Shown: one piece after another, positions 6,779-52,356 of the stretch
How positions within the stretch are numbered: the stretch's first letter is position 1
Layout of the letters: each line of letters starts with the position of its first letter
Assembly (NCBI GenBank): GCA_963666565.1
Contig: OY762911.1
Span: forward strand, 2,144,001 to 2,208,000
Length of the DNA stretch: 64,000 nucleotides
Direction: 5' to 3'
Source of the DNA: Thermoanaerobaculia bacterium
GTDB lineage: Bacteria; Acidobacteriota; Thermoanaerobaculia; Multivoradales; Multivoraceae
The notes under the pieces: model-generated
What the model was told of the DNA's origin: nothing
What the model saw: the letters and a program-made list of their open reading frames with translations, nothing else
Databases searched by the model: none
Program-made: the position numbers and the translations under genes

Positions 6779-6792
6779 ATCGCGCCGGCGGC

Positions 6793-20734: not shown

Positions 20735-20911
20735 CCAGCCGAGGGGCCGGGGGGAGGTTCCCATCGGCCGCTCGCGCTTTTCGGGCTCAGGGGGAGATTG
20801 CGCTCGCTTCGGTCGGCTGCGCTTCACGTCGGCGTCGGTCCATGGCAGGGCGTCGACCGTCGCTTGCCTCCAGCCCGCTGGGACCCTCCCCCCGGCCCCT
20901 CGGCAGGCTGG
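20735..20911. mobile_element. MITE-like element, copy 1
   Basis: Imperfect terminal inverted repeats GCCGAGGGGCCGGGGGGAGG / CCTCCCCCCGGCCCCTCGGC. The core at 20801-20839 matches the reverse complement of copy 2 at 38 of 39 nt. Confidence 0.65.
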
Positions 20912-21377
20912 AAGTCGTCGGGTTCCGAAGGGCGGCAACCCGCTGGAGCACGGACCAACAGGAGTCGTCGTTCAAGAGTCGCAGGTAGCGGTCGTTCGCC
21001 CGGTTCTGGGCGATAGCGCCCGTTTCCCAGCGCTTGATCGTGGCCTCGCCGAGTCCGGTGATTTCGGCGAACGAGGCGCGGCTCAATCCGTGGCGTTCGC
21101 GAATCGCTCGAATCTCCCACGGTGTCAACAGGCCGAGGTGGCGGTAGACCGCCTCGGTCCGAACGCGTTCGCCGACTTCATCGATGAAGTCGAAGTCGCA
21201 GGCCTTGCAGTGCCTCACCGGGTGTCGAACGTGGAGGTCCACCGCGGCTCTACCTGAGCCGTACGTGAGCGTGTCGTCCACGATTGTCGTGGTCGTCGGC
21301 CGCTCGCAGTACGGACAGGTCAGTTCATCGAGGGCCGCGGAGTCGATCCGGCCTTCGTCGCTGTTCTGCGTCTTCAT
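20787..21377 (-). CDS. MqsA-like antitoxin (Zn ribbon + XRE HTH)
   Basis: CPYC...CKAC, GLLTPWEIRAIRERHGLSRASFA and TIKRWETGAIAQ. The last ~40 codons read through the MITE-like repeat. Confidence 0.85.
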   Translation of the reverse strand: MKTQNSDEGRIDSAALDELTCPYCERPTTTTIVDDTLTYGSGRAAVDLHVRHPVRHCKACDFDFIDEVGERVRTEAVYRHLGLLTPWEIRAIRERHGLSRASFAEITGLGEATIKRWETGAIAQNRANDRYLRLLNDDSCWSVLQRVAALRNPTTSSLPRGRGEGPSGLEASDGRRPAMDRRRREAQPTEASAISP

Positions 21378-21787
21378 GAGTGGCCTCTCTCGCTTGTGTC
21401 GGTTCGCTGGCTGGGCGGGTCGGCGAGGTGGAAACTGCGGCCGACGATCTTGCTCGCCGTGAGTTCGAGCTTGACGTAGAGCTTGGGAGAGTTCGGGCTG
21501 ATTTCAAGCTTCATGACGTAGCCCGTGGCACCCGCGGGCCGGTCCATCTCGATCATCTCCACATGCTCTCCCTGTTCAAGTCTGCTCGCGATGAACTCCC
21601 AAGCCGAGACGTCGGTGAACTGCATGTCGAAGGGCGCTTCCGGGTTGGGCACCGTGAACGGGATCCAGCGACTGGGCCGCTTTGGGGGCGTACCCAGCCT
21701 TCGGGTCCGTGGGCTCTCTGCCAAGCGGACAAGCAGTCTCCTCGTGTCGTCGTCGATCCCGCCCTGGGTTCTCGCGCCAGCCATCAT
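21374..21787 (-). CDS. Putative MqsR-like toxin
   Basis: Directly upstream of the antitoxin with an ATGA overlap. LYVKLEL...RSFH C-terminal motif as in MqsR-like RNases. Confidence 0.6.
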   Translation of the reverse strand: MMAGARTQGGIDDDTRRLLVRLAESPRTRRLGTPPKRPSRWIPFTVPNPEAPFDMQFTDVSAWEFIASRLEQGEHVEMIEMDRPAGATGYVMKLEISPNSPKLYVKLELTASKIVGRSFHLADPPSQRTDTSERGHS

Positions 21788-33199: not shown

Positions 33200-34375
33200 A
33201 TGGCCAGCAAGGGAATCTGTGATCGCGTAGCCATCGTCGGCATGGGCTGCACCAAGTTCGGAGAACACTGGAACCGCAGCGCCAGCGACCTGCTGGTCGA
33301 TGCCGTCCAGGAGGCCTACGGCTCCGCCGGGATCGAGCCGGACAACGTCGACGCCTACTGGCTCGGCACCACCGGCAGCGGCATCTCCGGCCTGACCCTC
33401 TCCGAGCCGCTGAAGATCCAGTACAAGCCGGTCACCCGGCTTGAGAACATGTGCGCCACCGGCAGCGAGGCGATCCGCAACGCCGCCTACGCGGTGGCGT
33501 CCGGCGCCTACGACCTCGTCATGGCGGTCGGCGTCGAGAAGCTGAAGGACTCCGGGTTCTCCGGCCTCACCGGCAGCGCCCCTCCGGGCGACGGCACCGA
33601 GTCCGGCATGACCGCGCCGGCGAACTTCTCCCTGTTGGCGCCCGCCTACGCCGAGAAGTACGGCGTCGATCTGGAGACGATGCGCGACGTCCTCACCAAG
33701 ATCGCCTACAAGAACCACTACAACGGCGCCCGCAACGAGAAGGCGCAGTTCCAGCGCGAGGTGCCGGTCGAGAAGATCAACGCGTCGCCGAAGGTGGCGG
33801 GGATGCTCGGCATCATGGACTGCTCCGGCGTCTCCGACGGCGCCGCCGCGGCGGTCATCTGCCGCGCCGAGGACGCCCACAAGTACAACGACGACCCGAT
33901 CTTCATCAAGGCGCTGTCGTTCGTGGCCGGTCCGTCCGAGGGCGCCAAGCGCCAGGACTACGACTTCACGACCTTCCCCGAGGTCGTGGAGAGCGCTCGC
34001 GACGCCTACGAGCAGGCGGGCATCGAGGAACCGCGCGAGCAGATCAGCATGGCGGAGGTCCACGACTGCTTCACGCCGACCGAGCTCGTGCTGATGGAGG
34101 ACCTCGGGTTCTCGCCGCGCGGCCAGGCGTGGAAGGACACGATGGACGGCCGCTTCGACCTCGACGGCGACCAGCCGGTCAACCCCGACGGCGGCCTGAA
34201 GAGCTTCGGCCATCCGATCGGCGCCTCCGGCCTGCGGATGATGTACGAGATGTGGCTCCAGCTCCGCGGCGAGGCCGGCGAGCGCCAGATCGCCGATCCC
34301 AAGCTCGGCCTGACCCACAACCTCGGCGGCGCCCCGGGCCGCTGCGTCAGCTTCGTGTCGGTCGTCGGCCTGTAG
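33200..34375 (+). CDS. Thiolase family (SCP-x/Ltp2-like acetyl-CoA acetyltransferase)
   Basis: ENMCATGS, DCSGVSDGAAA, EVHDCF and GGLKSFGHPIGASG. Confidence 0.92.
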   Translation: MASKGICDRVAIVGMGCTKFGEHWNRSASDLLVDAVQEAYGSAGIEPDNVDAYWLGTTGSGISGLTLSEPLKIQYKPVTRLENMCATGSEAIRNAAYAVASGAYDLVMAVGVEKLKDSGFSGLTGSAPPGDGTESGMTAPANFSLLAPAYAEKYGVDLETMRDVLTKIAYKNHYNGARNEKAQFQREVPVEKINASPKVAGMLGIMDCSGVSDGAAAAVICRAEDAHKYNDDPIFIKALSFVAGPSEGAKRQDYDFTTFPEVVESARDAYEQAGIEEPREQISMAEVHDCFTPTELVLMEDLGFSPRGQAWKDTMDGRFDLDGDQPVNPDGGLKSFGHPIGASGLRMMYEMWLQLRGEAGERQIADPKLGLTHNLGGAPGRCVSFVSVVGL

Positions 34376-34401
34376 GCCCCGGCTGAAGCGCTGATGCACT
34401 G

Positions 34402-34434
34402 CGACCCCGCTGGGAGACCCGGCGGGGTCGTTTC
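34402..34434. terminator. Hairpin, probably the ancestral terminator between convergent thiolase and aminotransferase genes
   Basis: CGACCCCGCTGG-N-CCGGCGGGGTCG followed by TTT. Confidence 0.55.
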
Positions 34435-34435
34435 G

Positions 34436-34479
34436 TCAGTGCGCTGCCCGCGTCAGCGCCTCGTCCATCGCCGCCAGCG
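34436..34479 (-). pseudogene. Relic 3' end of the class III aminotransferase gene
   Basis: Encodes LAAMDEALTRAAH*, versus LAAMDEALTRAAS* at 42592. Positions 34455-34479 are identical to 42611-42635. Confidence 0.8.
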
Positions 34480-34677: not shown

Positions 34678-35187
34678 GTGAGCCGTCCCGAGATCCAGTT
34701 CCCTCGGTCCCGTTGCCCTGTCGACCCCGTTGGCGACTCAGGGCATTCCCGCGACCCTGGAGCGCCGAGCGCCGCACCGCACCGATCCCCGGTCAAGCCC
34801 CTGCGCGTCTTCCTCAGCTACGCCAGCGCGCACAAGCCCCTCGTCGACCGCTTCCGCGAAGAGGCGGCGGCCAGCCCTTCCTACCCTTGGTTTCGCGGCA
34901 GCTCTCTCGACGAGCCCATAGTCGACTGGCAGCGGCACGCAGAGCGCCTCATCCGTCGTTCGGCAGCCACCATTTGCCTGGTCGGCGACACCACTTGGCG
35001 CAGCGAACCGGTCAATTGGGAGATCCGCCGCGCCGCGAGTTTCGGGAAGCCGATCCTGGCGATCTCCCTGTACTCCAGTGGGGTCCGTCTGCCCGCCGCG
35101 CTGCTGGATCTCGGCATTCACTCCGTCGCCTTCAATCCGAACTCCTTCTTGCGGAACCTGAGTCATGACAGTTATCGATCCACTTGA
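34678..35187 (+). CDS. TIR domain protein (DUF1863/ThsB-like)
   Basis: RVFLSY, IRRSAATICLVGDTTWRSEPVNWEIRRA (catalytic Glu) and GKPILAI. Start uncertain. Confidence 0.8.
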   Translation: MSRPEIQFPRSRCPVDPVGDSGHSRDPGAPSAAPHRSPVKPLRVFLSYASAHKPLVDRFREEAAASPSYPWFRGSSLDEPIVDWQRHAERLIRRSAATICLVGDTTWRSEPVNWEIRRAASFGKPILAISLYSSGVRLPAALLDLGIHSVAFNPNSFLRNLSHDSYRST

Positions 35188-35686
35188 CGAGGACCTCTTC
35201 GCGGGGCGCGAGCCTGAGGAGGGGCAGGCGCAAGCGCTCCTGGAACAGTACAAGCTGTTCGTCAACACGTCCGAGGCCCTCGTGCAGCGGCGGCAGGGCG
35301 TGAACACCTTCTTCCTTTCCGTAAACTCCCTGCTCCTTGCCGCGGCCGGGCTGATCGTGCGCGACGGTTCGTTGGGCGGCGTGGAGTCCCTGATCCTGAT
35401 CTCACTGAGCGTCAGCGGTGGCGTCCTGTGTCTGGTCTGGCGTAGCTTGATCTCGTCGTTCAGGCAGTTGAGCGCGGGCAAGTTCAGGATCATCCATGCT
35501 CTCGAACAGCGACTTCCCGCCCGGATTTTCAGTGCCGAATGGGTCGCGCTCGGAAAAGGGAAGGACCCGAAGATCTACAAGCCCTTCACGGGCACGGAGT
35601 CGACGACTCCTATCGCCTTCTTGGTGCTTCACTTGGCTCTGCTGGTGGCCGGTGCGTCGAGGGCGCTCACCCCTCTGGCCTCCTGA
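35165..35686 (+). CDS. Small 3-TM membrane protein, resembles the RipA-type octameric membrane protein family
   Basis: LLEQYKLFV....RRQGVNTFFLSVN, two TM helices, W..LI.SFRQL..GKF.II..LEQRLP..IF..EW and a C-terminal TM. Overlaps the TIR1 stop by 23 nt. Confidence 0.7.
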   Translation: MTVIDPLDEDLFAGREPEEGQAQALLEQYKLFVNTSEALVQRRQGVNTFFLSVNSLLLAAAGLIVRDGSLGGVESLILISLSVSGGVLCLVWRSLISSFRQLSAGKFRIIHALEQRLPARIFSAEWVALGKGKDPKIYKPFTGTESTTPIAFLVLHLALLVAGASRALTPLAS

Positions 35687-35704
35687 GGAGGTTCGACCAA
35701 GGTC

Positions 35705-36145
35705 ATGAGCACGCGACGGATCCACCTCTTCATCAGCCACTCGTGGGCGTACTCGGGGCACTACGACACGCTCTGTTCGTGGGTTTTCGAGAGGAGTTGG
35801 TCGGTAGGGCAAGCGTCGCTCGAGTTCTTCGACTTCTCCGTGCCCAAGTACGATCCGATCCACGACGCGGGATCCGACCGGGCGCTCCAGGCAGCGATTC
35901 TCAGGAAGATCGATCGGAGTCACGTCGTTGTCTGCCCGACGGGCATGTATGCGAACCACAGCAAGTGGATCCGGAAGGAGCTGGCGGGAGCGAGGGCGAA
36001 GAGCAAACCGGTCCTGGGTGTCGATCCTTGGGGCCAGCAACGGCGTTCGTCGGTCGTAGGCGGTGCCGCGCGAGAGACGGTCGGCTGGAACGGAAAAAGC
36101 GTTGTGCAGGGCATCTGGAGGTGTTACCTGGACAGAGGCTACTGA
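35705..36145 (+). CDS. TIR domain protein (DUF1863/ThsB-like), second copy
   Basis: LFISHSWAYS, DFSVPKYDPIH, SHVVVCPTGMYANHSKWIRKEL (catalytic Glu), KPVLGVDPWG and VGWN. GAGGAGG upstream. Confidence 0.85.
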   Translation: MSTRRIHLFISHSWAYSGHYDTLCSWVFERSWSVGQASLEFFDFSVPKYDPIHDAGSDRALQAAILRKIDRSHVVVCPTGMYANHSKWIRKELAGARAKSKPVLGVDPWGQQRRSSVVGGAARETVGWNGKSVVQGIWRCYLDRGY

Positions 36146-36317
36146 CGTCGATCAGTACAACCCGCCAACTCTCCCGTTCCCGTGGTCTCGCCAACTACAG
36201 CTGCCCCGGCGGCCCGATTCAGAGAGCGATGTCGGCCACGTTGGCCACGCCGTCAACGGACGCACGTGCGACTCGGTACTGAGGCCGACTTGCCTGCGAC
36301 TCGATCTTCCCCGGGAC

Positions 36318-36359
36318 CTGCGACCTCATGTCCTTGCCGTCGATGACCTTCTCGACGAC
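36318..36359 (-). pseudogene. Relic 3' segment of the type III res gene
   Basis: CTGCGACCTCATGTCCTTGCCGTCGATGACCTTCTCGACGAC versus 38374-38415; VVEKVIDGKDMRSQ versus VVQKVMDGNDMRSQ. Confidence 0.7.
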
Positions 36360-36784
36360 TGCTCGGGCGTTTCTGACGGCTCCGCCGCGGCGGCCATCTA
36401 CCGCACCGAGGACGCCCACAAGTACAACGACGACCCGATCTTCATCAAGGCGCTGTCGTTCGTAGCGGGTCCCTCCGAGGGCCCCAAGCGTCAGGACGGC
36501 CGCTTCGACCTCGACGGCGACCAGCCGGTCGACCCGGACGGCGAGCTGAAGAGCTTCGGCCATCCGATTGGAACCTCCGGCCTGCGGATGATGTACGAGA
36601 TGTGGCTCCAGCTCCGCGGCGAGGCCGGCGAGCGCCAGATCGCCGATCCCAAGCTCGGCCTGACCGACAATCTCGGCGGCGCCCCGGGCCGCTGCGTCAG
36701 CTTCGTCTCGGTCGTCGGCCTGTAGGCCCTGACTGAAGCGCTAGTGCACTGCGACCCCGCTGGCTTCCCGGCGGCGTGGTTTCG
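36357..36784 (+). pseudogene. Duplicated 3' part of the thiolase gene plus downstream flank, with an internal 189-nt deletion
   Basis: Copies 33818-33958 joined to 34148-34434 across a GGAC microhomology; scattered substitutions; no start codon. Confidence 0.9.
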
Positions 36785-37030
36785 CTTCCAATGTCGGTGC
36801 GCCGGCCTTCTGGCCGGTACCGGGCGGTGTTGCGCCGGTGTACTTGTAGCCTCAGCGGCGAGAGTGGCTGCGGTCCAGCCCATAAGTCGAACGACGATTC
36901 GACTGGCGCGGGGCGTGTCCCCGCCATCGGGGAAGCTACAGTGAACCAGATCGTCGCCTCGCGCCTGCCGGACGGGGCGAACGAGCCGCGTAGGGTCCAG
37001 CGACGGTCGAAGATCGCGAGGCCATTACCC

Positions 37031-38182
37031 ATGTCACGTCCCTACATCCTGTTCTGTCCCTATCTTCCCATCATGGAGGCGGTGACTTTCGCTGGTTGGG
37101 AACTCGCGCCGCTGGACTTCTTCCAGGACCGCTGGGCTGACCCTCGGTTCAAGGACACGGCCATCGCGTTTATGGACAGGTTCCTCGACTTGGACCACAA
37201 GCCGATCCAAAGCCCGACCCTCCTGTGCAGGGAAGGGCGGCAACTGGACGGCGAGAAGCCTCCACTGGAGGTGGTCAGGGCACTCCAGCTCGCGTTGGTC
37301 TTCGCGTTCGTCGACGGCAACCCCAGGTGCCAGCCCGGGAACAAGGACCGGGGTTCGGCCATGATGACGGCCGAGAATGCTGACTTGCACGTATGGCCTA
37401 TCAATCTGGAGAACAAGAGCGTCGTCAAGCGTACGGGCTACTTGGTCGAGACGCACACTGCCCAGTACGGTGCCGGCGGTGGCCGCCTGACCCTGAGTCC
37501 GCCGCTCGACCTCCACCTGCCCTCGATGGCGCAGGGCCCGGACCCCTTGGTCTTGGTGGGCCTCTACGAGACGATCCTGCGCTCGCTGCAGTTCCCTGGC
37601 GCGAACCGTGATGGCGAAGCGATTCGAGTCGCTGTTGATTGGTTCGCGAGAGCTTGGCAGAACACCGCCCTGGTCGGATACCCGGAGCGGCTCGTGTACC
37701 TGAAGATCGCTTTCGAGGCGCTGACCGGTACCAGCAATAGCTGGAAGAGTGGCCGCAGGCTGCGAGAGATGTTCGAAGCGGTGCCAGACACAAGGCGTGA
37801 GGATTCGGAACGCCTCGTTTGGTCTCCGGAGGAGAAGCCCGTTCACGAGCGATGCTGGAAGAACAGGCGTGGCCACGCTCGGTCCACACGCATGACGGAT
37901 CTGGAACACTGGTTCATGGAGTTCAGTGATGCGCGGAACCGTATCGTTCACGAAGGCGCGACGCCAGAGCTCACCTACACCGGTCCGAGCCCCAGCTATG
38001 CCGGTCCGTTCTTCTGGACCGCCGAGTTCCTGCTCCGCAGTGCCATCAAGGTGAAATTGTCGGAGATCGGGTATGACAACGTTTGGCGCGGCCAGCTTTG
38101 GAGGCTTATCAGGGAGATCGTGGAGGAGCCGACGGTCGAGACCGTAGAACCTCAGCCTCGATCTGAGGACGACGCGAGCTAG
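37031..38182 (+). CDS. HEPN-domain protein (ApeA/RiboL-PSP-like architecture)
   Basis: C-terminal YLKIAFEAL...DARNRIVHEG (RxxxxH). ATG at 37031; island location. Confidence 0.65.
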   Translation: MSRPYILFCPYLPIMEAVTFAGWELAPLDFFQDRWADPRFKDTAIAFMDRFLDLDHKPIQSPTLLCREGRQLDGEKPPLEVVRALQLALVFAFVDGNPRCQPGNKDRGSAMMTAENADLHVWPINLENKSVVKRTGYLVETHTAQYGAGGGRLTLSPPLDLHLPSMAQGPDPLVLVGLYETILRSLQFPGANRDGEAIRVAVDWFARAWQNTALVGYPERLVYLKIAFEALTGTSNSWKSGRRLREMFEAVPDTRREDSERLVWSPEEKPVHERCWKNRRGHARSTRMTDLEHWFMEFSDARNRIVHEGATPELTYTGPSPSYAGPFFWTAEFLLRSAIKVKLSEIGYDNVWRGQLWRLIREIVEEPTVETVEPQPRSEDDAS

Positions 38183-38348: not shown

Positions 38349-40979
38349 CTATTGCCCGATACTCTCCAGGAGCTGCGACCTCATGTCATTGCCGTCCATG
38401 ACCTTCTGGACGACGAGGAACAGACACTTTCCGGCGCTCTCCCGCTCCCACAGATCACCGATTGCGCGTTTCTCGGCCGTGTCGGCACCTTCGGCGAGGT
38501 GGGCGCCCTTGTACTCGACGACGAGCAGACGGTCGTCCTTCAACCGGGCAACGAAGTCGGGGTAGAAGCGGCCGCCTGCCGTGGGCAGCCAGAACGAGTC
38601 GGGGTGGTTCGCGACGTTGCGGACCCAGTACGTCACTGTCGGCAGACTGTCGATCGCCTGCGCGCACTGGAACTCTTCGCCGTCGGAGGAGCCGTCGAAG
38701 GCGGGTACCTGGTCGGGCCCGAGGAAGTGGCGGTTCGGCTTCCAGGGGCCGCGATAACGACGCTGCCCGTGGTACATCCCGTCCCGGAACGCGAAGGCGT
38801 CGTCGAAGGAAACGCCAACTTTGGCCGTGGGCGCGAACAGGAACTGCTGGTAGGCGGACTCCCTCTCCCTTCGGCGAATGGCCGCGATCTTTCCGCGCAC
38901 CTTGCGCGTCAGGATGAACTTGCACCGCATCAGCGCCGCGATGTGAAGCCCGCGGGCGACGAGCAGGTGGTTGACCAGCTCGCTCAGCCAGCGCAGGAGC
39001 TCTCCCTGTCCGATGTCGGGCTGACGGACCTGCCGGTCGAGCCAGCGCACTAGCGCCTGCGGCGTCCAGCCTTCGACGTCGACGTCGAGGGTCAGTTGCT
39101 CCTCTTCGGAGGCGAAGCGGTAGGTCACGCGCTGGCCGTCCAGGTCGATCTCGAAGCCGCGCGCGGTCTCGCGGACGGTGAACTCCTCCTTCGCGAGCTT
39201 TGGCGAATGATCCAGTAGGGACCAGTCGCGGCACTCCATGAACAGCTCCGTGTCGGCGAAGACGATCTCGCCCTGCACGGCCGCGGTGAGGCGCGGCGCG
39301 GAGAGTCGTCGTCCGCGTTGCGCCGGCGAGAGCCGGCGGTATCGTTCCGCCCTGTACTCGTCGACAGAACGGACAAACTCGGCTCGTTCGTCTTCGGGCA
39401 GAGCGTCGCGGACGGCGTCCACCACATCCGGGTCGAGTTCGACTTCGGAGGCGATCTCGATCTTCCCGGTCTCCGACGTCCTCAGCGTGAACCCTCTGGC
39501 GCCCTTGAGAACCGCCAGAAGGTCGTCGGAGACGGTCGCGATGTGACTGAGCGTCGGGGGCGTCTGGTCGTGAGGCGCGGAGAGCGTCTCGTTGGGAAGC
39601 AGGTCCCGCTGAGCGGCCTCGACGTGTTCTTCAGCCTCCTCCTCCTCGAAGCCCATCGAGACCAGCTTGTCGACCAGCGCCCGCGCGGCGTGGCCGAAAG
39701 ACGGCTCGGAAAGGAAAGCGTAGGCGCGGTTCAGAGCGTCGTCTTTGCGGCGCTCCGCGAAGGGCATTCGCAGGACGCGACCGAGGAGCTGCTCGACGTC
39801 CCGGCCGTCCTGGATCCGGGAGACGGAACAGAAGACGTAGGCGAAGGAGCAGTCCCAGCCTTCCTTCAGCGCTTCGACGGTGATCACGTGCTCGATGGGG
39901 CACTCCGGGTCGAACAGGTCGAGCCCGTCGAGTTCCCTCTGTTTGCCGGTGGCTACGGCGATCTTCTCCTCCGCGATCTGCTCGACCTCGACGAGGTGCT
40001 CCTTGAGCGCTGCCGCGGTCACTTCGCGGTTCCTCGGCTGCGCCTGGAAGAGGACGATGGGCCGCATTGGCCGCGGGTCGTCGGCTGCCGTCCGGGACAG
40101 CGAGGACCGCGTCGCGACAGCGCCGTTCACCGCGTTCTGCCACGTGTCGTGCTCCGAGAGCATGACGGGCAGCTTGATCATGTCCTCGGCCTTCAGTTCG
40201 CTCGCGGTCACGCTATGCAGGATGTTCGACTTCGTTCGCGGCGTCGCCGTGAACTCGACGATGGCGCAGGGGTTCACGCGCGCCTGCATCTCCCGCGTGA
40301 GGCCAGTCACGGCATTGTGCGCTTCGTCGACGATCATCAGCGGCCGATGGAGATGGAGCAGGTTGGCGAACGAGAACTTCGGCTTCCCGTTGTCGAGCGT
40401 CTCCAGTCCCTCCGGTGCGCCGACGAGGCTGCCGAAATGGGGTTCGAGGTTCTCGTTGTGCGCGTAGACCTTGCGCCCCTCGGTGTTCGTCACCCGCAGC
40501 GCCTGGATCGTGCCGACGACGATGCAGCAGTGATCGCGGAGGTTGTGGGGGCGGACGTGGGCGAAGTCCGCGATGTCGAACACGCGCACCCTGCCGTCGA
40601 ACGCTTCGTCGAGCGCCTTCCGGTAGGGATGCCGCGTGTCCTTGAGCGCCTCCGCGGTCTGTGTGCGGATCGTCTTCGTGGGAACGAGCCACAGAACGAG
40701 CGGCCAGTCCTTCTCGATCCACGCGTCGCGAGCGAGCGGGACGGCGTGAGCCGCAAGGATCGTCTTGCCGCCGCCGGTCGGCAGGCGAAGGCACACGTAG
40801 GGGACGCCGGGAAGCCCGGCCAGGGCCTTGTAGTTCTCCGCGTAGCCGCGCAGCCGGCCCGCTTGCTCCGGAGCGCCCGTGATTCTCTCGTACGCCGCCT
40901 TCGGCCCGGCGACGCGGGCTTCTTCGAGGAACGTGCGGAGAATCGCGAGCGTGTCGGCCTGATAGCGCTTCAGTTCCAC
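38349..40979 (-). CDS. res: Type III restriction subunit (DEAH helicase + PD-(D/E)xK nuclease)
   Basis: LPTGGGKT, IVDEAH, TATP, ALKEGWD, QLLGRVLRMP and FYPDF...VVEYKG. Confidence 0.88.
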   Translation of the reverse strand: MELKRYQADTLAILRTFLEEARVAGPKAAYERITGAPEQAGRLRGYAENYKALAGLPGVPYVCLRLPTGGGKTILAAHAVPLARDAWIEKDWPLVLWLVPTKTIRTQTAEALKDTRHPYRKALDEAFDGRVRVFDIADFAHVRPHNLRDHCCIVVGTIQALRVTNTEGRKVYAHNENLEPHFGSLVGAPEGLETLDNGKPKFSFANLLHLHRPLMIVDEAHNAVTGLTREMQARVNPCAIVEFTATPRTKSNILHSVTASELKAEDMIKLPVMLSEHDTWQNAVNGAVATRSSLSRTAADDPRPMRPIVLFQAQPRNREVTAAALKEHLVEVEQIAEEKIAVATGKQRELDGLDLFDPECPIEHVITVEALKEGWDCSFAYVFCSVSRIQDGRDVEQLLGRVLRMPFAERRKDDALNRAYAFLSEPSFGHAARALVDKLVSMGFEEEEAEEHVEAAQRDLLPNETLSAPHDQTPPTLSHIATVSDDLLAVLKGARGFTLRTSETGKIEIASEVELDPDVVDAVRDALPEDERAEFVRSVDEYRAERYRRLSPAQRGRRLSAPRLTAAVQGEIVFADTELFMECRDWSLLDHSPKLAKEEFTVRETARGFEIDLDGQRVTYRFASEEEQLTLDVDVEGWTPQALVRWLDRQVRQPDIGQGELLRWLSELVNHLLVARGLHIAALMRCKFILTRKVRGKIAAIRRRERESAYQQFLFAPTAKVGVSFDDAFAFRDGMYHGQRRYRGPWKPNRHFLGPDQVPAFDGSSDGEEFQCAQAIDSLPTVTYWVRNVANHPDSFWLPTAGGRFYPDFVARLKDDRLLVVEYKGAHLAEGADTAEKRAIGDLWERESAGKCLFLVVQKVMDGNDMRSQLLESIGQ

Positions 40980-42591: not shown

Positions 42592-43974
42592 TCAGCTTGC
42601 CGCTCTCGTAAGCGCCTCGTCCATCGCCGCCAGCGCGAACTCGACGTCGGCCTCCGTCAGCACGAGCGGCGGCTTGACCCGCAGCACGTTGCCGTAGAGC
42701 CCGCCCTTGCCGACGATGGCGCCCAGGTCCTTCAACTCGTCGAGCACCCGGCCGGTCAGGGCGGTTCCCGGCGTCTTCGCGGCCCGGTCGGCGACCAGTT
42801 CGATGCCGATCATCAGCCCCTGGCCGCGGACGTTGCCGATGCCTTCGTGGCGTTCTGCGAGGTCGCGGAAGCCCTGCAGGAGCCGGTTGCCCTGGATCTG
42901 CGCGTTCCGCTGCAAGCCCTCCTCCTCGATCACCTCCAGCACGGCCAGGCCGGCCGCCGAAACGAGCGGATTGCCGCCGAACGTGTTGATGTGGAGTCTC
43001 TGCGCCAGCGCCGCGGCGATCTCGGAGGTGGTCGCGACGGCCGCCAGCGGCAGGCCGTTGCCGATGCCCTTGGCCATCGTGACGATCTCGGGGACGACGC
43101 CGGAGCGCTCGAAGCCCCAGAAGTTGTCGCCGGTGCGGCCGAAGCCGGTCTGGACCTCGTCGGCGATGCAGACGCCGCCGTGGGCCCGGACGATCTCGTA
43201 GACCTCGGGGAGGTAGTTGGGCGCGCCCATCGTCACGCCGCCGGCGCCCTGGATGGGCTCCGAGATGAAGGCGGCGACTTGGCCGGGCGTGGAGTACCGG
43301 ATGAGTTCGGCCACGTCCTCCGCGGAGCGGCTGGCGATCTCTTCGGGCGTTCCGGCGAACGGATTGCGGTACGGATCCGGGTTGAGCGCGTGGTGCACCG
43401 GCCCGCCGCGCTGCACGCCGGACTTCCAGGTGTGGATGCCGGTCAGCGCCCCGGTCGGCGCGCTGCCGCCGTGGTAGGCGTTGCGGATGCCGACGACGTC
43501 GGCGTTGCCCGTGTGGAGCCGGGCCATCTGGATGGCCAGGTCGTTCGCCTCGCTGCCGCTGTTCACGAAGTAGATCCGGTCGATGCTCGGCGGCAGCTTG
43601 GCCAGCAGCGCCTCGGCGAAGCGCGGCATGTTCGGGTGCAGGAAGGCGGTCGAGCCGTGGGCCAGGAGCGCCATCTGCTGCTGGACGGCGGCGACGATCT
43701 TCGGGTGGGAGTGGCCGCAGGCGACGGTGCAGATGCCGGCGAACAGATCGAGGTAGCGGCGCCCCGTCTCGTCCCAGACGTATTGCCCGCGGCCTTCGAC
43801 CAGCATCACGGGCTCGCTGTAGAGGGTGAACAGGGCCGGGTTCACGTGCTGCCGGCGCAGTTCCAGGATCTTCTCGCGGCCCGGTCCCAGGTAGGGCGCC
43901 GGCCGGTGGCTGCACGGCGGCAGCTCCAGGGCGCGGGATCGGGAAGGGGTCGCGACGTCGAGTGCCACGGTCAT
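42592..43974 (-). CDS. Class III aminotransferase (AGXT2-like)
   Basis: YLDLFAGI, NSGSEAN, AYHG, EPIQG, DEVQTGFGRTG and MAKGIGNG (PLP Lys). Confidence 0.92.
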   Translation of the reverse strand: MTVALDVATPSRSRALELPPCSHRPAPYLGPGREKILELRRQHVNPALFTLYSEPVMLVEGRGQYVWDETGRRYLDLFAGICTVACGHSHPKIVAAVQQQMALLAHGSTAFLHPNMPRFAEALLAKLPPSIDRIYFVNSGSEANDLAIQMARLHTGNADVVGIRNAYHGGSAPTGALTGIHTWKSGVQRGGPVHHALNPDPYRNPFAGTPEEIASRSAEDVAELIRYSTPGQVAAFISEPIQGAGGVTMGAPNYLPEVYEIVRAHGGVCIADEVQTGFGRTGDNFWGFERSGVVPEIVTMAKGIGNGLPLAAVATTSEIAAALAQRLHINTFGGNPLVSAAGLAVLEVIEEEGLQRNAQIQGNRLLQGFRDLAERHEGIGNVRGQGLMIGIELVADRAAKTPGTALTGRVLDELKDLGAIVGKGGLYGNVLRVKPPLVLTEADVEFALAAMDEALTRAAS

Positions 43975-46728: not shown

Positions 46729-47510
46729 CTGCGCCCCGGGATCCGTTTCGTCTCGACGGCCGGACGGTTGCCGTCATCGGCGCCGGCTCAGGCATCGGCG
46801 AGGGCGCGGCCGAGGCCTGCGCCCGCCAGGGAGCGCACGTCGCCTGTTTCGACCTGAACCTCATCGCCGCCAGGGCGACGGCCGACCGGATCGTCGCCGC
46901 GGGCGGCAGCGCGGAGGCGGCCGAACTCGACGTGCTCGATTCGGAAGCGATGACGTCGGCGCTTGGCGCGCTGGACGATCTTCAGGGCGTCGTGGCGACT
47001 CCGGGCGTCAACGTCCGCAAGCGCCTGCTCGACTACCAGCCCGACGAGTTCGACCGGGTGGTGACGCTCAACCTCCGCGGAGCGATGTGCGTGCTCCAGG
47101 TCGCTGGAGGGCTGCTCAGCGACGCCGGCGGCGGCAGCATCGTGCTGCTGTCCTCCATCCGCTCCCAGGTCGTCGAGCCGGGGCAGGGCGTCTACGCCGC
47201 GACCAAGGCCGGCATCGTCCAGCTCGCGCGAACGGCCGCGGCCGAACTCGGCGGCGCCGGCATCCGCGTCAACGCGCTGGCGCCCGGCGTCGTCGACACG
47301 CCGCTGACGAAGCCGATTCAGCAGAACGAGGCGTGGAACCGGGCCTACGCCGGCAAGACCGCGCTGGGCCGGTGGGGAAGGCCGGACGAGATCGGCGCCG
47401 CGGCGGCGTTCCTCGTCTCCGACGCCTCGAGCTACATGACCGGCGCCGTGCTCTTCGTCGACGGCGGCTGGACCGCCATCGACGGCCGCTTCGATCCTCC
47501 GGCGGGCTGA
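46725..47510 (+). CDS. SDR oxidoreductase
   Basis: GAGSGIG, YAATK and VDGG. Confidence 0.9.
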   Translation: MTAPRDPFRLDGRTVAVIGAGSGIGEGAAEACARQGAHVACFDLNLIAARATADRIVAAGGSAEAAELDVLDSEAMTSALGALDDLQGVVATPGVNVRKRLLDYQPDEFDRVVTLNLRGAMCVLQVAGGLLSDAGGGSIVLLSSIRSQVVEPGQGVYAATKAGIVQLARTAAAELGGAGIRVNALAPGVVDTPLTKPIQQNEAWNRAYAGKTALGRWGRPDEIGAAAAFLVSDASSYMTGAVLFVDGGWTAIDGRFDPPAG

Positions 47511-47524
47511 GCGGGAGACCGGAG

Positions 47525-48883
47525 ATGGGACCCGACGACTGGACTCCCGGGTCCGGGCGGACGCTGCGGGAGCTCCTGCGGAACGCTCGCATCTCGAACG
47601 AGCAGGCGGCGGAGCTGGCGGCGGTGGACCGCACGACGATCTACCGCTGGCTCAGCGGTCGCCAGAGTCCGCTGCGGCCGCAGAGCTGGAAGACGGGCGG
47701 CCTGGAGAGACTGGGCCGCCACCTCGGCTTCGAGACGCTGGAGGCGTTTGTGGAGGCCCTGAGCCTCGGCAGCGCGGACGCCGAAACCCCGCCGGGGCCG
47801 GCGAGCCCGGACGCCTCCGCGCTCGGCGAACCCGGGCGGCTCGCGCAGCAGTACGTGTTCCTTCGGGGCGCCGTCTCTTGGGAGAACCTCTCCTCGGCGC
47901 TCGGCGACAAGGCGACTTCCGGCGTCGATGCGTGCCTGCGCGAGGGCATCGTGGTGGGCCGCTACGTCGCCGGTCAGCGGTACTTCCTGGAGCCCGGCCT
48001 GGCGCTGGCGGCGGCCATCGCGTACCGGCCCGTCAAGCTGCCTCTGCTCGCGGCCGAACTTGGCCTGGACGTCGCCGGGATCGATAAACTCCTGCGCCAG
48101 CGGTCCGAGGACCTGGAGCAAGGGTCGGACGGTGCCGTGCGCCTCGCCGCCCACGACTACCGCGTCGTGATCTTCGACTGGAGCGAGACGCTCGTGGACG
48201 AAGCGAACTACGACTACGAGATCTGCGAGTCCCTGGCCTCGATCTGCGGCCACGACGCGTTTCGGACTCTCCTGAATCGGCTCGAAGCGGACCACGACCC
48301 CAGATGGTGGGACTACTTCTTCCTGGCCGCCCAGTTCGGGATCTCGGGATCGCAGGTCGTCGACGCCCACACGCGGCACCGGAGCATGATGGCCTGGATT
48401 CCGGGAGCGGAGGCGGTTGTCGCCCATGCCCGCGAGAAATCGGAAGCCGTGCTGGCAACCAACTGGCACGCGGACAACGTCCGGCTTCGGATGGAGTTGC
48501 TCGGTCTGGCGCCGGAGACCTTCTCGCGCATCGTGACGAGCGACGAGTTCGACAGCGTTCGGTCCAAGCGGGACATGTACGCCAGGATTCTCGCGGAGTT
48601 CGATGTTGCCGCGGAGGACGTACTCGTCATCAGCAACACGTACGACCAGAATGTCCTGCCGGCCCTGACGCTCGGCTGCCAGGCCGTCTGGTTCGCCCGG
48701 CCGCGCTCCCGCTTCCTGTGGCTCAGGAGGGCGCCGCGAACGGGCGCCGGTTTCTTCTACCTGCTGAGGAACTCGGCGAAGTTCCGACTTCCGGGCTTCG
48801 TCGCGTTCGACCATCGCGAGACGCTTTCGTGGCTCCAGGGCACGCCACGGGCTCGCCACGGGAGCGCCACGCCCGGAATCTGA
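47525..48883 (+). CDS. XRE-type HTH fused to a degenerate HAD-like domain
   Basis: ATG at 47525 after a GGAG RBS. EQAAELAAVDRTTIYRWLSG HTH; VVIFDWSETLVD, LATN, K and LVISNTYDQNV align with HAD motifs I-IV but are altered. Confidence 0.65.
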   Translation: MGPDDWTPGSGRTLRELLRNARISNEQAAELAAVDRTTIYRWLSGRQSPLRPQSWKTGGLERLGRHLGFETLEAFVEALSLGSADAETPPGPASPDASALGEPGRLAQQYVFLRGAVSWENLSSALGDKATSGVDACLREGIVVGRYVAGQRYFLEPGLALAAAIAYRPVKLPLLAAELGLDVAGIDKLLRQRSEDLEQGSDGAVRLAAHDYRVVIFDWSETLVDEANYDYEICESLASICGHDAFRTLLNRLEADHDPRWWDYFFLAAQFGISGSQVVDAHTRHRSMMAWIPGAEAVVAHAREKSEAVLATNWHADNVRLRMELLGLAPETFSRIVTSDEFDSVRSKRDMYARILAEFDVAAEDVLVISNTYDQNVLPALTLGCQAVWFARPRSRFLWLRRAPRTGAGFFYLLRNSAKFRLPGFVAFDHRETLSWLQGTPRARHGSATPGI

Positions 48884-49303
48884 CGCGCAGTGGACTCGCC
48901 ACCATCCCCCTGCCTAACGTTGAGCGGTGCTCCCGGCAAGGACGAGATCGAAACGAAAGGCGGCGGTCGGTGGCCTCGGCGTCGGAGGCGCGGGCAGAGC
49001 CAGAAGCAGACGGGCGCCGCGGCGAGCGAACGCAAGGCGGTTCTGCCTGGACCATCTGGTCGCTGCCGTCCGGCAGACAGGACACCGTCGCCGAGATGTA
49101 CGCCGGCTACATGCCCATGGTCACCGTCTCGATCCGGGAGAGCTCTGTTTCCGACAACGACTCGTAGTACGGGGACGGAGCGTTCTTGCTCCGACCGTAC
49201 GAGTCTGTGTCGCGCATGGCGCCAGACCACGCCATCTTCACCATCAATCCGGAAAAGCCGCCTATAGGTCCTGCAGAGGGCGCCATTTGGAACGGTCGCC
49301 AGT

Positions 49304-50485
49304 ATGAGAGAGCCATGGGTCGATGAGATTCATCGTGCTGCCGAACGGGGCGATGCCGACGAGCAGAGCAAGCTCGGTACGCTCTACAACGTCGGCACGG
49401 GTGTGCAGCAGGACGCCACGGAGGCGGTTCGCTGGTACCGCTTGGCCGCACAGCAGGGCCACGCCGAAGGGCAGATGCACCTCGGTATGTGCTACTTGCA
49501 CGGGCATGGCGTGCGTCAGGACCCCACCGAGGGGATTCGCTGGCTTCGCCTTGCCGCCGAGCAGGGCGACGCCCGCGCGCAGACGTACCTTGGCGCTTGC
49601 TACATGGACGGCGACGGCGTCCGGCAAGAGGCCACCGAGGCGGTCCGCTGGTATCGCCTTGCCGCCGAGCAGGGCGACGCCGACGCGCAGGTAAGCCTCG
49701 GAATCTGCCACATGGGCGGCGACGGCGTCCGCCAGGACGTCTTCGAGGCGGTTCGCTGGTTTCGCCTTGCGGCGGAGCAGGGTAACGCCGACGGGCAGAC
49801 AAACCTGGGAATCTGCCACATGCGCGGCGACGGCGTCCGTCAGGACGTCTTCGAGGCGATTCGCTGGTTTCGCCCTGCGGCAGAGCAGGGTAATGCCGCC
49901 GCGCAGACAAGCCTCGGAATCTGCTACGCGAACGGCGACGGCGTCCAGCAGGACGCCGCCGAGGCGGTTCGCTGGCTTCGCCTCGGCGCGGAGCAAGGCG
50001 ACGTGGACGCGCAGGAGGCGTTGGCAACGCTTGAGCCTCAAGGCGAGCACGGGCGCGATTCGCATGGACCAGGAAAGGCAGCGGAGGAACTGATTGTCAG
50101 TCTGGTGCGGAGATGGCCCAAGGCGACGAAGCTGGTGCGAAAGTTGAGCAGTCTGTTGCGGAAGTGGCCCGGGCTGCCGAAGTGGAAGAAGCGGCTGATC
50201 GGATTGGCGGCTTTTGTTGTCCTGATGTTGTTTGTGAGGTTGATTTACGGCCCATGGGTCGCCGGAGTACTGGTCCTGGTCATCTTCTTGTTGGCCGTGT
50301 CGGTCTTCGCGATTTGGTTTGGTTGGATTTACTTCATTACGGGCTGGAACATTGTCGAATGCCGAGGCTGCGGTCGGTCGATGTTGCTGCACCACTTCAG
50401 AAAGCAGCGCGGCTGCCTGAGCTGCGGCACGTCCCTGGAGCCGGTGCCAACCGGAGAACGCGGGTCTTTCTTTGATCGCTTCTAG
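49304..50485 (+). CDS. Sel1-repeat protein with C-terminal TM helices and Zn ribbon
   Basis: About six 36-aa AAEQG.A.AQ..LG.CY..G.GV.QD..EA.RW repeats, two hydrophobic segments and CRGC...CLSC. Confidence 0.88.
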   Translation: MREPWVDEIHRAAERGDADEQSKLGTLYNVGTGVQQDATEAVRWYRLAAQQGHAEGQMHLGMCYLHGHGVRQDPTEGIRWLRLAAEQGDARAQTYLGACYMDGDGVRQEATEAVRWYRLAAEQGDADAQVSLGICHMGGDGVRQDVFEAVRWFRLAAEQGNADGQTNLGICHMRGDGVRQDVFEAIRWFRPAAEQGNAAAQTSLGICYANGDGVQQDAAEAVRWLRLGAEQGDVDAQEALATLEPQGEHGRDSHGPGKAAEELIVSLVRRWPKATKLVRKLSSLLRKWPGLPKWKKRLIGLAAFVVLMLFVRLIYGPWVAGVLVLVIFLLAVSVFAIWFGWIYFITGWNIVECRGCGRSMLLHHFRKQRGCLSCGTSLEPVPTGERGSFFDRF

Positions 50486-52356
50486 ACTCCTTGAACAAGG
50501 GGCGTCTTAACAGTTGAGTCAAGTTTGGTTCGGGGTGTCCGTGTCGATTCGGCGTGACGGAGGTCGGCCTCAGGCTGCGAGTCGCTGTCCTCGCCAAGCT
50601 CTTTGGACCTCGCGGTCGTAGCTGGCGACGGTTCTTCGTAGCCGGGCGTTGGCTTCCGGGTCGAGGGTGGCGGACATGACGGGGCCGAGCACTCGGGCGT
50701 GGGTCCGGTGGTAGGCGAACGCTACGCGCAGTCCCCAGTCGGTGATCCGGTAGCGGTGGGTGCGCGGAACCCGTTCGACGATTCCCCGCAGTCGCAGTCG
50801 GCGCAGGTCGTAGGTCATGCGGGAGGGTCCGTAGCGGTCCGGCGTGAGTCCGCACAGACTGGCGACCGCGGGCCGCAGGTCGCGGTTGCGGAAGCCGTTG
50901 GGCAGGAGGCTGAAGCGCAGCAGGGCGGCGAAGAGACTCTGCACCCTGCGGTCTCCGAAGCGAAGCGCCGAAGCGCGCTGACCCGAGATGCACCGCGGAC
51001 GGTGCAGATCGTCGAGCGTTTCGGCTCCGAGCAGACAGTCGTGGCTGAGAGTTTGGACGCCGAGCAGGCGTCGGTTGGCGGCGAAGCCGACCTTCTTGAG
51101 GTCATCGAGGTTTCTCAGCAAACGACCGACATCGAAGTCGTAGGTGTCGTTGATCACCGTCTCGGTGCGCAGGGCGCGCCCTTCCTTGTGGTACTGCTTG
51201 ATGCGCGAGTGCTTGTAGTCGACGTGCAGCGACGGGGAGACCCCGTCGGTAATGACGCGGGTGCGATACCGCGAGGGGGTGCGTCGCGTGACGCGGCGCT
51301 TGAAGATCAACTGCACGTGCTCGGGCCGTCCCATGTCGAGGTGCTCGCGCAGCACCTCCTCGAAGAAGACCCGACCCTGCACCGGGCGGTCGAAGACCTG
51401 GGTCAGGGCGAATTCGGCCTGGAGGATCGAGACGGCGTAGCGGATGCCCCGCCGCCGGTCGCCGGCGGAGAACGGATGCGGCAGGCGAGCCAGCCACTTG
51501 CGCAGCAGCGCGTCGATCTTGTCCGCGTCGAGGCCGTCGGCGAGCCGCTGCATCGCCTCCGGGTCCGAGCAGCGCAGGATGCCGTTGTCCAGCGCCTCGT
51601 ACTCGATCCCCCGCTTGCTCAACTGGCGCTTGAGGTACTCGTGTCCGTTGATGCACAGCTTGGCGTTGTAGGGGAAGTACGAGCAGAACTTCAGGAAGAA
51701 CGGACCGAAGTCGTCGTCGAACACGTAGAAGTAGTACTGGTTGACCATCGCCGTCGAGTGCACCAGCCACGGATAGCCCGCGTCGGTCGCCGAGTCGTAA
51801 CGACGCTCGGTACGCAGCACCCGAGCCTTCTCCTGCGCCTTGCCGACGTACAGCACCCCCTCGCCTCCATGCCACCGGCGAAGGTACTCGCGGGTGCGGT
51901 CGTCCTTGCGCTCGCCGCGCCGAAACGGGACGATGTCGATCCGATGCTGCCGCGCGTAGCCCTTGATCGCGGCCACGAACCGCCTCGTCATCGGCGCCAT
52001 CAGCACCGACGACGGCACCTGCGCGCCCCGCACCTCCCGGAAGAACCAGGCCGCGCCCGCGCCACGCTGAAGCACCGGTACGTAGACGTTGAGGTACATC
52101 CGATCGACGCACTCCAGCGTCAACGACACATGCTCCTCAAGAACCTCGGCTGCCGTGCGTGCTACCTTCATCAGCGGACTCCGGTCGATGGGCTTCTCAC
52201 CGGCCAGCTTAAGGCCACCTTCGCCGCAGAGCGACAATACGGCGGATTCACTCCGCAGCTGAAGCAGCGACCGGAGTCCGATCGACGCCAAGGCCGAGGC
52301 CGACCACCGCCGCGAACATGCTCGTCGGTCTGAGGCGAAGCCTCGTTAGAGGCTTG
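50482..52356 (-). mobile_element. Putative single-gene mobile element without terminal inverted repeats
   Basis: Minus-strand CAAGCCTCTAA in a hairpin (AAGCCTC-TAAC-GAGGCTT, 52338-52355) upstream of the ORF, and CAAGGAGTCTAG (50493-50482) downstream. Confidence 0.45.
50570..52171 (-). CDS. Uncharacterised ~533-aa protein with a Rep_trans-like motif and C-terminal winged helix; putative transposase
   Basis: LECVDRMYLN, YYFYVFDDDFGPFFLKFCSYFPY, SRIKQYHKEGRALRTE and MTYDLRRLRLRGIVERVPRTHRYRIT (wHTH-like). No DDE or recombinase motif recognised. Confidence 0.6.
   Translation of the reverse strand: MKVARTAAEVLEEHVSLTLECVDRMYLNVYVPVLQRGAGAAWFFREVRGAQVPSSVLMAPMTRRFVAAIKGYARQHRIDIVPFRRGERKDDRTREYLRRWHGGEGVLYVGKAQEKARVLRTERRYDSATDAGYPWLVHSTAMVNQYYFYVFDDDFGPFFLKFCSYFPYNAKLCINGHEYLKRQLSKRGIEYEALDNGILRCSDPEAMQRLADGLDADKIDALLRKWLARLPHPFSAGDRRRGIRYAVSILQAEFALTQVFDRPVQGRVFFEEVLREHLDMGRPEHVQLIFKRRVTRRTPSRYRTRVITDGVSPSLHVDYKHSRIKQYHKEGRALRTETVINDTYDFDVGRLLRNLDDLKKVGFAANRRLLGVQTLSHDCLLGAETLDDLHRPRCISGQRASALRFGDRRVQSLFAALLRFSLLPNGFRNRDLRPAVASLCGLTPDRYGPSRMTYDLRRLRLRGIVERVPRTHRYRITDWGLRVAFAYHRTHARVLGPVMSATLDPEANARLRRTVASYDREVQRAWRGQRLAA

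Follow-up and report, generated by a model that had tools for sequence, protein, structure and literature searches.

Two genes for proteins with TIR domains flank a gene for a small membrane protein in a bacterium of the Thermoanaerobaculia (Acidobacteriota). The question that this locus raises is whether the three products form an anti-phage system and, if so, which of them would act as its effector. The genes occupy positions 34678-36145 of a 64,000-nucleotide stretch of contig OY762911.1 (assembly GCA_963666565.1), referred to here as the window; coordinates follow the numbering of this 64-kb window unless another locus is named. We found that the trio travels together across phyla and that the TIR and membrane-protein domains also occur as a single polypeptide. 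We propose, with a probability of roughly one in two, that the locus is a horizontally acquired three-gene Thoeris-like abortive-infection cassette, in which a ring of the membrane protein, a member of the 8xMP/RipA family, would be the membrane effector. The support for this proposal is computational throughout.

The three genes and their products

The GC content of the window is about 0.70, and the cassette lies within a stretch of lower GC that extends from about 34.4 to 42.6 kb. The initial annotation described three tightly packed genes on the same strand, and the list of open reading frames (ORFs) agrees: the ORFs of TIR1 and 8xMP overlap by 23 nucleotides and those of 8xMP and TIR2 are separated by 18 nucleotides (Table 1), with overlaps of a like kind in the orthologues. 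The ratio of nonsynonymous to synonymous substitution rates (dN/dS) is 0.12-0.46 for all three ORFs in comparison with three orthologues, showing that they evolve as coding sequence and thus are real genes. The start of TIR1 is doubtful, as the sole in-frame start is a GTG at 34678, 42 codons ahead of the TIR domain, and the N-terminal extension is common to the nearest relatives only. A scan for promoters and terminators found none.

Profile searches with the three proteins, judged against the curated Pfam cut-offs, returned ThsB_TIR, 8xMP and ThsB_TIR in gene order, all above cut-off. TIR1 matches ThsB_TIR (PF08937, cut-off 21.2 bits) at 2.4e-8 (34.7 bits) and TIR_2 (PF13676) at 1.5e-7, and TIR2 matches PF08937 at 6.4e-14 (52.6 bits), in agreement with the earlier claim of two ThsB-like TIRs that keep the catalytic glutamate. 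The candidate catalytic residue of TIR1 is E115, in the motif VNWEI, which is invariant in 27/27 orthologues; that of TIR2 is E92, in the motif IRKEL, which is retained in 22 of the 23 orthologues and replaced by lysine in L032. Profile-profile alignment with hhalign indicates that TIR1 and TIR2 are homologous (92% probability, E 5e-7), with the two glutamates aligned. The glutamate of TIR1 is also matched in an alignment to the solved TIR 8fz9_A (E 2.6e-4), and TIR2 gives weak alignments to the ThsB structure 9uv0_A (E 0.59, glutamate aligned) and to MTH538; the aligned glutamate of the solved TIR structures is what we take to be their catalytic residue. PADLOC produced only weak matches for the two TIRs, to ThsB and PDC-M50B.

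TIR1 is the most variable gene of the trio, and the TIR2 lineage is highly conserved: mean identity among orthologues is 0.53 for TIR1 (minimum 0.31), 0.58 for 8xMP and 0.63 for TIR2. TIR2 forms a clade of its own with 100/100 support, which includes the single TIRs that precede 8xMP on plasmids of Synechococcus, Halorubrum and Haladaptatus. The TIRs of Polaromonas, Haematospirillum, Novosphingobium and Solirubrobacterales group with TIR1 by profile scores and in the tree. This placement of the plasmid TIRs shows that each of the two lineages pairs alone with 8xMP elsewhere; the cassette in the window carries both.

The product of the middle gene had been described as a 173-residue protein with three transmembrane segments and, from recall of its motifs, as RipA-like, and both descriptions hold. 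It matches 8xMP (PF24838) at E 1.8e-33, with a score of 115.7 bits (cut-off 30), over profile positions 1-133 of 136, and this is its sole Pfam domain. The relative P0105 bears the NCBI name 'RipA family octameric membrane protein', and clusters in the Atlas are named likewise; we infer the octameric state from this family name. Neither the window protein nor P0105 has a matching model in NCBIfam release 20.0. The hydrophobic segments span residues 46-66, 70-96 and 146-171, with nine lysines and arginines in the loop 96-145 and none in the loop 67-74. The topology predicted from these features would place the N-terminal helix and the basic 96-145 loop in the cytoplasm, and the short 67-74 loop and the C-terminus outside. 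The AlphaFold2 model is all-helical, with helices at residues 19-66, 72-116, 119-129 and 143-172 and a predicted local distance difference test score of 76.5. The residues Y29, R42, R43, W92, K106, E114, E125, W126, Y138, E145 and P149 are invariant across the family.

For the membrane protein, neither sequence nor fold searches found a solved or modelled relative; the best fold matches had an E of 0.29 in the PDB and of 0.64 among viral models. With PF24838 left out, the Atlas gave sub-threshold leads only, at most 0.81; PycTM is one such lead, with a score of 0.76, and is carried by 11% of cluster members. The family itself is large: HMMER retrieved 3399 representatives at the 50% identity level (E<=1e-3) from 1.84 billion representatives. 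In a phage collection, the only match is a plasmid record that the collection also includes.

Recurrence, fusions and probable horizontal acquisition

By scanning one genome per species, we identified 41 loci with a relative of the membrane protein, all in metagenome-assembled genomes; these are related loci and not independent events, because the search patterns came from the clade of the window. The loci were scored by a six-frame scan with profiles of the three proteins, with which tblastn agrees. The record titles name Acidobacteriota, Gammaproteobacteria, Rhodothermales, Binatia, Thermodesulfobacteriota, Longimicrobiales, Palauibacter, Solirubrobacterales and one member of the Acetobacteraceae. 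In 36 of the 41 loci, the membrane gene is immediately preceded by a TIR1-type gene of the same orientation. A full-length TIR2 is present in 24 loci and a partial one in four (L009, L015, L033 and L034); the gene is absent from 13, among them L003, where the contig ends. The trio is adjacent and uninterrupted in 21 loci, and three further loci have all three genes plus a defect. An insertion-sequence-type DDE transposase gene (DUF4372 and DDE_Tnp_1; 5681-6847) separates the membrane gene from TIR2 in L013, the membrane gene of L022 contains an in-frame stop, and that of L002 is without a stop and runs into TIR2. The membrane gene is accompanied by a convergent TIR1-type gene in L035-L037, with a DUF7701 gene in addition in L035; L038-L040 hold truncated membrane genes, and L041, which matches weakly, has no TIR. 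The pairwise distances of the three proteins correlate across the window and 23 loci (Mantel r 0.39-0.67, reached in 0/2000 permutations), a correlation that reflects common descent only.

Three gammaproteobacterial loci contain additional genes upstream of the trio, namely a TIR1-type fragment and a divergent 8xMP paralogue (L008, 3913-4555; L013, 3928-4537; L014, 3890-4361). The second paralogue is 24-28% identical and matches the Pfam family at 7e-15 in L008. These upstream genes look like a tandem second pair that is decaying or diverging.

A plasmid collection, which is a more independent sample than the genome loci, yielded 19 records with 8xMP matches of 23-40% identity. We examined 10 of these neighbourhoods; the records outside the 10 comprise three near-identical Leptolyngbya records and six others. 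All 10 proteins match PF24838, at 1e-26 to 1e-43. An annotated TIR lies directly upstream of 8xMP in six of them (Synechococcus, Polaromonas, Novosphingobium, Halorubrum, Haematospirillum and Haladaptatus), and two of the six, Halorubrum and Haladaptatus, are haloarchaeal. Elsewhere the upstream gene encodes a 449-residue protein with a sub-threshold TIR_2 match (Leptolyngbya) or an NB-ARC protein (Rhizobium), and no TIR adjoins 8xMP on the Streptomyces and Acaryochloris plasmids. The genes downstream of 8xMP in Novosphingobium and Streptomyces were considered as TIR2 counterparts and are unrelated to it. The plasmid copies adjoin genes for type I restriction R subunits, PIN, HEPN and Fic proteins and toxin-antitoxin pairs. 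Across the two surveys, the linkage of TIR and membrane protein recurs: as in Thoeris, a TIR gene shares a conserved operon with a single partner that is not a TIR, and the TIR is upstream in 36/41 genome and 6/10 plasmid loci.

The two domains are also joined in nature. Among the best 150 of the 3399 representatives, 51 are longer than 210 residues, and Pfam places an N-terminal TIR ahead of the 8xMP domain in 16 of these. With the TIR1 profile, 23 of the 51 match at a domain E<=1e-5, on E-values that refer to a set of only 59 sequences, and this profile always scores better than the TIR2 profile. The fused TIRs have long branches in the tree and are nearer to TIR1 by profile scores alone. 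An N-terminal TIR fits the predicted topology of 8xMP, since the TIR would then be cytoplasmic. A second recurrent partner of 8xMP is DUF7701 (PF24792), which is fused N-terminally to it in 10 of the 51 long representatives. Sequences with this fusion include P0248, P0252, P0256-P0260, P0270 and P0319, and in L035 the domain is encoded by a separate gene (5453-5890, minus strand). DUF7701 was considered as a relative of the TIRs and is unrelated to TIR1 and TIR2 (hhalign probability below 1%). Two joins of 8xMP to TIR2 were also rejected: the apparent 'Rosetta stone' fusion P0005 reflects an in-frame deletion that removes the third transmembrane segment and the start of TIR2, and the join in L002 is read-through from the membrane gene without a stop. 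Because the predicted topology of 8xMP puts its C-terminus on the outer side of the membrane, we regard both as decay or assembly errors.

The cassette in the window is probably foreign in origin and acquired horizontally, as judged from its codon composition and a flanking duplication. Third codon positions have a GC content of 0.78-0.81 in the cassette and of 0.92-0.96 in the thiolase and aminotransferase genes on its flanks, and the cassette is bracketed by two copies of a thiolase 3' end (Table 1), the right one of which is 89-95% identical to 33818-33967 and 34144-34413. The thiolase duplication also flanks the cassette in the syntenic loci L001-L003, with copies at 3107-4280 and 5978-6481 in L001. 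The flanking OB-fold and thiolase proteins of these loci are 92-99% identical to those of the window, and the cassette DNA is 88-92% identical. This arrangement suggests that a circular element with a piece of the thiolase gene inserted by a single crossover (Campbell-type) and so duplicated the target; no integrase was found near the thiolase-bracketed cassette. The interval between the thiolase and aminotransferase genes is a mosaic hotspot of repeated recombination, and at the same hotspot L001 holds the Ietis pair IetA/IetS between the cassette and res. Two short remnants also lie in this interval of the window, one to each side of the cassette. One, at 34436-34479, repeats the aminotransferase 3' end at 42592-42635 (44 nucleotides, 84%), and the other, at 36302-36359, repeats the res 3' end at 38357-38414 (58 nucleotides, 86%).

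The genes around the related loci were surveyed with PADLOC in 96 flanking ORFs of at least 200 residues from 34 loci (the 50 farthest ORFs, those of L002 and L003 and one of L037 were left out). At E<=1e-5, 12 of the 96 ORFs matched, in 10 of the 34 loci (raw counts). The matches include IetA/IetS, DrmMI or type IIG, JetC, a cyclase of the cyclic-oligonucleotide-based anti-phage signalling system (CBASS), PDC-S01 and others.

Proposed mechanism, rival explanations and related systems

In the proposed cassette, the TIRs would sense infection, with the fast-evolving TIR1 as the likelier sensor, and would use nicotinamide adenine dinucleotide (NAD+) to make a product derived from adenosine diphosphate (ADP)-ribose. 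This product would act on the 8xMP ring, with the TIR seated on the ring or nearby, and the activated ring would breach or depolarise the inner membrane so that the infection is aborted. Signalling is expected to be local, with the TIR docked on the cytoplasmic face of the ring rather than releasing a freely diffusing messenger, because TIR and 8xMP are often one chain. We would class the locus as a Thoeris-like TIR system that has 8xMP/RipA as its effector family, a family for which we found no characterisation as an effector in the literature. If this is true, a large effector family, of 3399 representatives at 50% identity, would be added to TIR-based bacterial immunity. A clue to function would likewise be gained for the 8xMP/RipA family, whose sole studied member is known by an intracellular-growth phenotype of a pathogen. 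The natural single-chain TIR-8xMP proteins would be handy for structures of pore gating by a TIR or by its product, and the presence of two TIR lineages in one cassette would allow a direct test of whether extra TIRs broaden phage sensing.

More tentatively, and with odds well short of even, we speculate that the 8xMP ring is a platform whose cytoplasmic TIRs make and consume an NAD+-derived signal in cis and so open their own pore, which would constitute a new type of Thoeris. Under such cis signalling, the two TIR lineages would each arm one effector, the system would reach from bacteria to haloarchaea, and RipA would be a domesticated immune pore.

Several points weigh against the proposed cassette. 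The 41 genome loci were found with peptide patterns of the window's own clade, and 10 of them are decayed or interrupted (L002, L009, L013, L015, L022, L033, L034 and L038-L040). A PADLOC-recognisable neighbour is present in only 10 of the 34 surveyed loci (a raw count), and the trio of L008 lies between leucine-biosynthesis and coenzyme A (CoA)-transferase genes. Pfam recognises no ligand-binding domain, such as SLOG or Macro, in the membrane protein. The charged residues R42, R43, K106, E114, E125 and E145 are equally conserved in TIR-fused, DUF7701-fused and short stand-alone members, and because of this conservation where no TIR is fused they mark no pocket specific to a TIR product. Diffusible signalling seldom involves a signal maker that is fused to its effector, and such a fusion fits 8xMP as a scaffold too. 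The roles of the membrane protein as effector and as pore are both what we infer. The namesake of the family, RipA of Francisella, is tied to LpxA and intracellular growth and not to defence in the portion of the literature available (PMC12444477).

The TIR-8xMP fusions favour a physical assembly of TIR and ring, and they fit equally well with reversed roles, in which the 8xMP ring would serve as a membrane scaffold or would sense, for instance, a disturbance of the envelope when phages enter or lyse the cell, and the TIRs would deplete NAD+ once a rearrangement of the ring had brought them into an active TIR-TIR geometry. We consider this arrangement rather unlikely and still grade it as a serious rival. 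In TIR-STING, TIR-SAVED and short-Argonaute TIR partners, the TIR is an NADase effector that is switched on by oligomerisation. The TIR-8xMP fusions, common at 16 to 23 of the 51 long representatives, would resemble these proteins in linking a TIR to a partner that oligomerises; they would differ in that the partner there is a soluble sensor and here an integral membrane ring, encoded in the window by a separate gene. Such a reversal is also in keeping with the other partners that 8xMP takes, namely DUF7701, fused to it in 10/51, and the NB-ARC protein encoded upstream in Rhizobium. TIRs of the fused kind were discarded from a recent survey of Thoeris, according to the accessible part of the preprint, which also cautions that the TIR may be the effector in unverified types (bioRxiv 10.64898/2025.12.03.692087). 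The proposed assignment, with the ring as effector, is favoured over reversed roles by the membership of both TIRs in the ThsB family PF08937, whose characterised members are mostly signal makers, and by the variability of TIR1, the most variable component, as a sensor would be. Depletion of NAD+ would need no membrane location, and small oligomeric membrane proteins encoded beside TIR, cyclase and CD-NTase genes are effectors in described systems.

The fusions, together with the overlapping frames of TIR1 and 8xMP, point to a stoichiometric complex, and in such a complex a ring-bound TIR might recognise a phage protein and open the pore directly by conformational change, with no enzymatic product. 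This direct gating is improbable: the glutamate is invariant in TIR1 (27/27) and near-invariant in TIR2 (22/23), and this retention argues that catalysis matters. Less probable still is a role outside defence, in which 8xMP would have an envelope or housekeeping function like that proposed for Francisella RipA and the TIRs would act in NAD-linked regulation. The available RipA literature does tie the namesake to LpxA (PMC12444477), some loci lie among metabolic genes, and 84 of the 96 flanking ORFs have no PADLOC match. A housekeeping function fits poorly with the patchy spread across phyla, the plasmid copies, the foreign codon composition and the frequent decay, with the restriction, CBASS, Wadjet, Ietis and toxin-antitoxin genes that adjoin the loci, and with the position of the cassette as an insertion beside an intact thiolase gene.

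The trio had been put forward as an undescribed system that lacks the known Thoeris effectors. The lack of these effectors is borne out for the window, and the trio is undescribed as far as the model libraries searched go. No described system model in PADLOC-DB 2.0.0 (2023) matched the trio, the membrane protein having 0 matches at E<=0.1, and no SIR2, SLOG or Macro effector was found among the 44 window ORFs scanned. Among the papers listed by keyword searches of the literature, none dealt with the 8xMP/RipA family, PF24838, DUF7701 or PF24792, and DUF2270 appeared only in the preprint of Yirmiya et al. The accessible text of that preprint neither describes nor assays a TIR-8xMP pairing, and it leaves the effector of type IX unnamed (bioRxiv 10.64898/2025.12.03.692087). 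It lists 29 putative TIR-linked effectors, annotated with Pfam v32 (bioRxiv 10.64898/2025.12.03.692087), a release that predates PF24838; as far as this text goes, the TIR-8xMP pairing may already be catalogued among them.

Of the described systems, the one most similar to the cassette is type V Thoeris of the same preprint, in which ThsB is paired with ThsF (DUF2270/PF10028), a protein triggered by 3' cyclic ADP-ribose (3'cADPR). ThsF has three helices, and its model is a circular homo-heptamer with a channel and basic inter-protomer pockets (bioRxiv 10.64898/2025.12.03.692087). The likeness lies in a ThsB-type TIR beside a small three-helix membrane protein, with presumed membrane killing in type V. 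The differences are that the membrane protein here belongs to PF24838 and ThsF to PF10028, that ThsF is modelled as a heptamer whereas the 8xMP family is octameric by name, and that the present cassette has two TIR lineages and relatives in which TIR and 8xMP are fused. None of 11 8xMP proteins matches PF10028 (the window protein at E<=0.1, the 10 plasmid proteins at E<=10), and by this family criterion the cassette is not type V; HMMER filters remove most matches above about 0.1, so that a very remote kinship with PF10028 could escape this comparison.

Membrane effectors also occur in Thoeris types II, VII and X, according to the accessible text (bioRxiv 10.64898/2025.12.03.692087). Type II resembles the cassette in its pairing of a TIR with a membrane-spanning effector, there Macro-TM, and some type II loci have two ThsB genes (PF13676 and PF08937) around the effector, as reported in the available part of another preprint (bioRxiv 10.64898/2026.01.22.701046). 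The window membrane protein differs in having neither a Macro nor another recognisable ligand-binding domain. Type VII Thoeris, SLATT of CBASS and PycTM of Pycsar employ small oligomerising membrane effectors that are triggered by nucleotides; the likeness is that of a small membrane protein, and the 8xMP proteins have no Pfam match to SLATT or PycTM. Francisella RipA, a small protein of the cytoplasmic membrane in the portion of its description available (PMC2767360), belongs to the same family by the NCBI and Atlas names of relatives. It differs in having LpxA as its partner, with no TIR context reported in the accessible literature, whereas the proteins studied here are TIR-linked.

Neighbouring genes and other features of the window

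Table 1. Positions of the cassette genes and adjoining features in the window.
Feature	Coordinates	Strand	Remarks
TIR1, ThsB-type TIR	34678..35187	+	ORF of 169 residues; TIR domain from about residue 43; Pfam PF08937 and PF13676
8xMP / 'RipA family octameric membrane protein'	35165..35686	+	173 residues; Pfam PF24838
TIR2, second ThsB-type TIR	35705..36145	+	ORF of 146 residues; Pfam PF08937
Thiolase 3' end, left copy	33818..34413	+	Within intact gene 33200-34375; bounds cassette; direct repeats D1, D2
Thiolase 3'-end remnant, right copy	36357..36763	+	Internal deletion; remnant ORF matches Thiolase_C_1 at 9.1e-15
Protein of no known family between cassette and type III restriction-modification genes	ORF 36776-38182; gene probably 37031-38182		Listed as 468 residues

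The cassette was initially placed in an island with type III restriction-modification and HEPN genes. Pfam and PADLOC substantiate the former, with matches to REase_III at 1.8e-176 and to MTase_III at 6e-161 downstream of the cassette. The HEPN assignment was not confirmed: it has a counterpart in a single motif of the protein encoded at 37031-38182. This protein, which belongs to no Pfam family, matches the 383-residue P0121 and has 128 homologues, and its motif R302-N303-x3-H307, located in a helix and without variation across 30 sequences, is HEPN-like. It gave no Pfam match at E<=1 and no PADLOC match, and its best Foldseek match in the PDB has an E of 0.41.

Among 36 further window ORFs, the only PADLOC match is a 1209-residue SNF2 helicase encoded at 747-4376 on the minus strand, which matches the DrmD model of the defence island system associated with restriction-modification (DISARM) at 3e-185 and is flanked by a glycosyltransferase gene. 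No further DISARM component was found among the window ORFs scanned. A second stretch of lower GC (0.63-0.67) lies at 47087-52291, with a Sel1-repeat protein encoded at 49304-50485 and two ORFs, of 598 and 573 residues, that have no Pfam or PADLOC match; this may be another acquired region. The GC content also dips to 0.64 at 20787-21787 on the minus strand, where the gene for a small helix-turn-helix protein adjoins a 137-residue ORF of no family; together they may form a small pair with a regulatory or toxin-antitoxin-like role.

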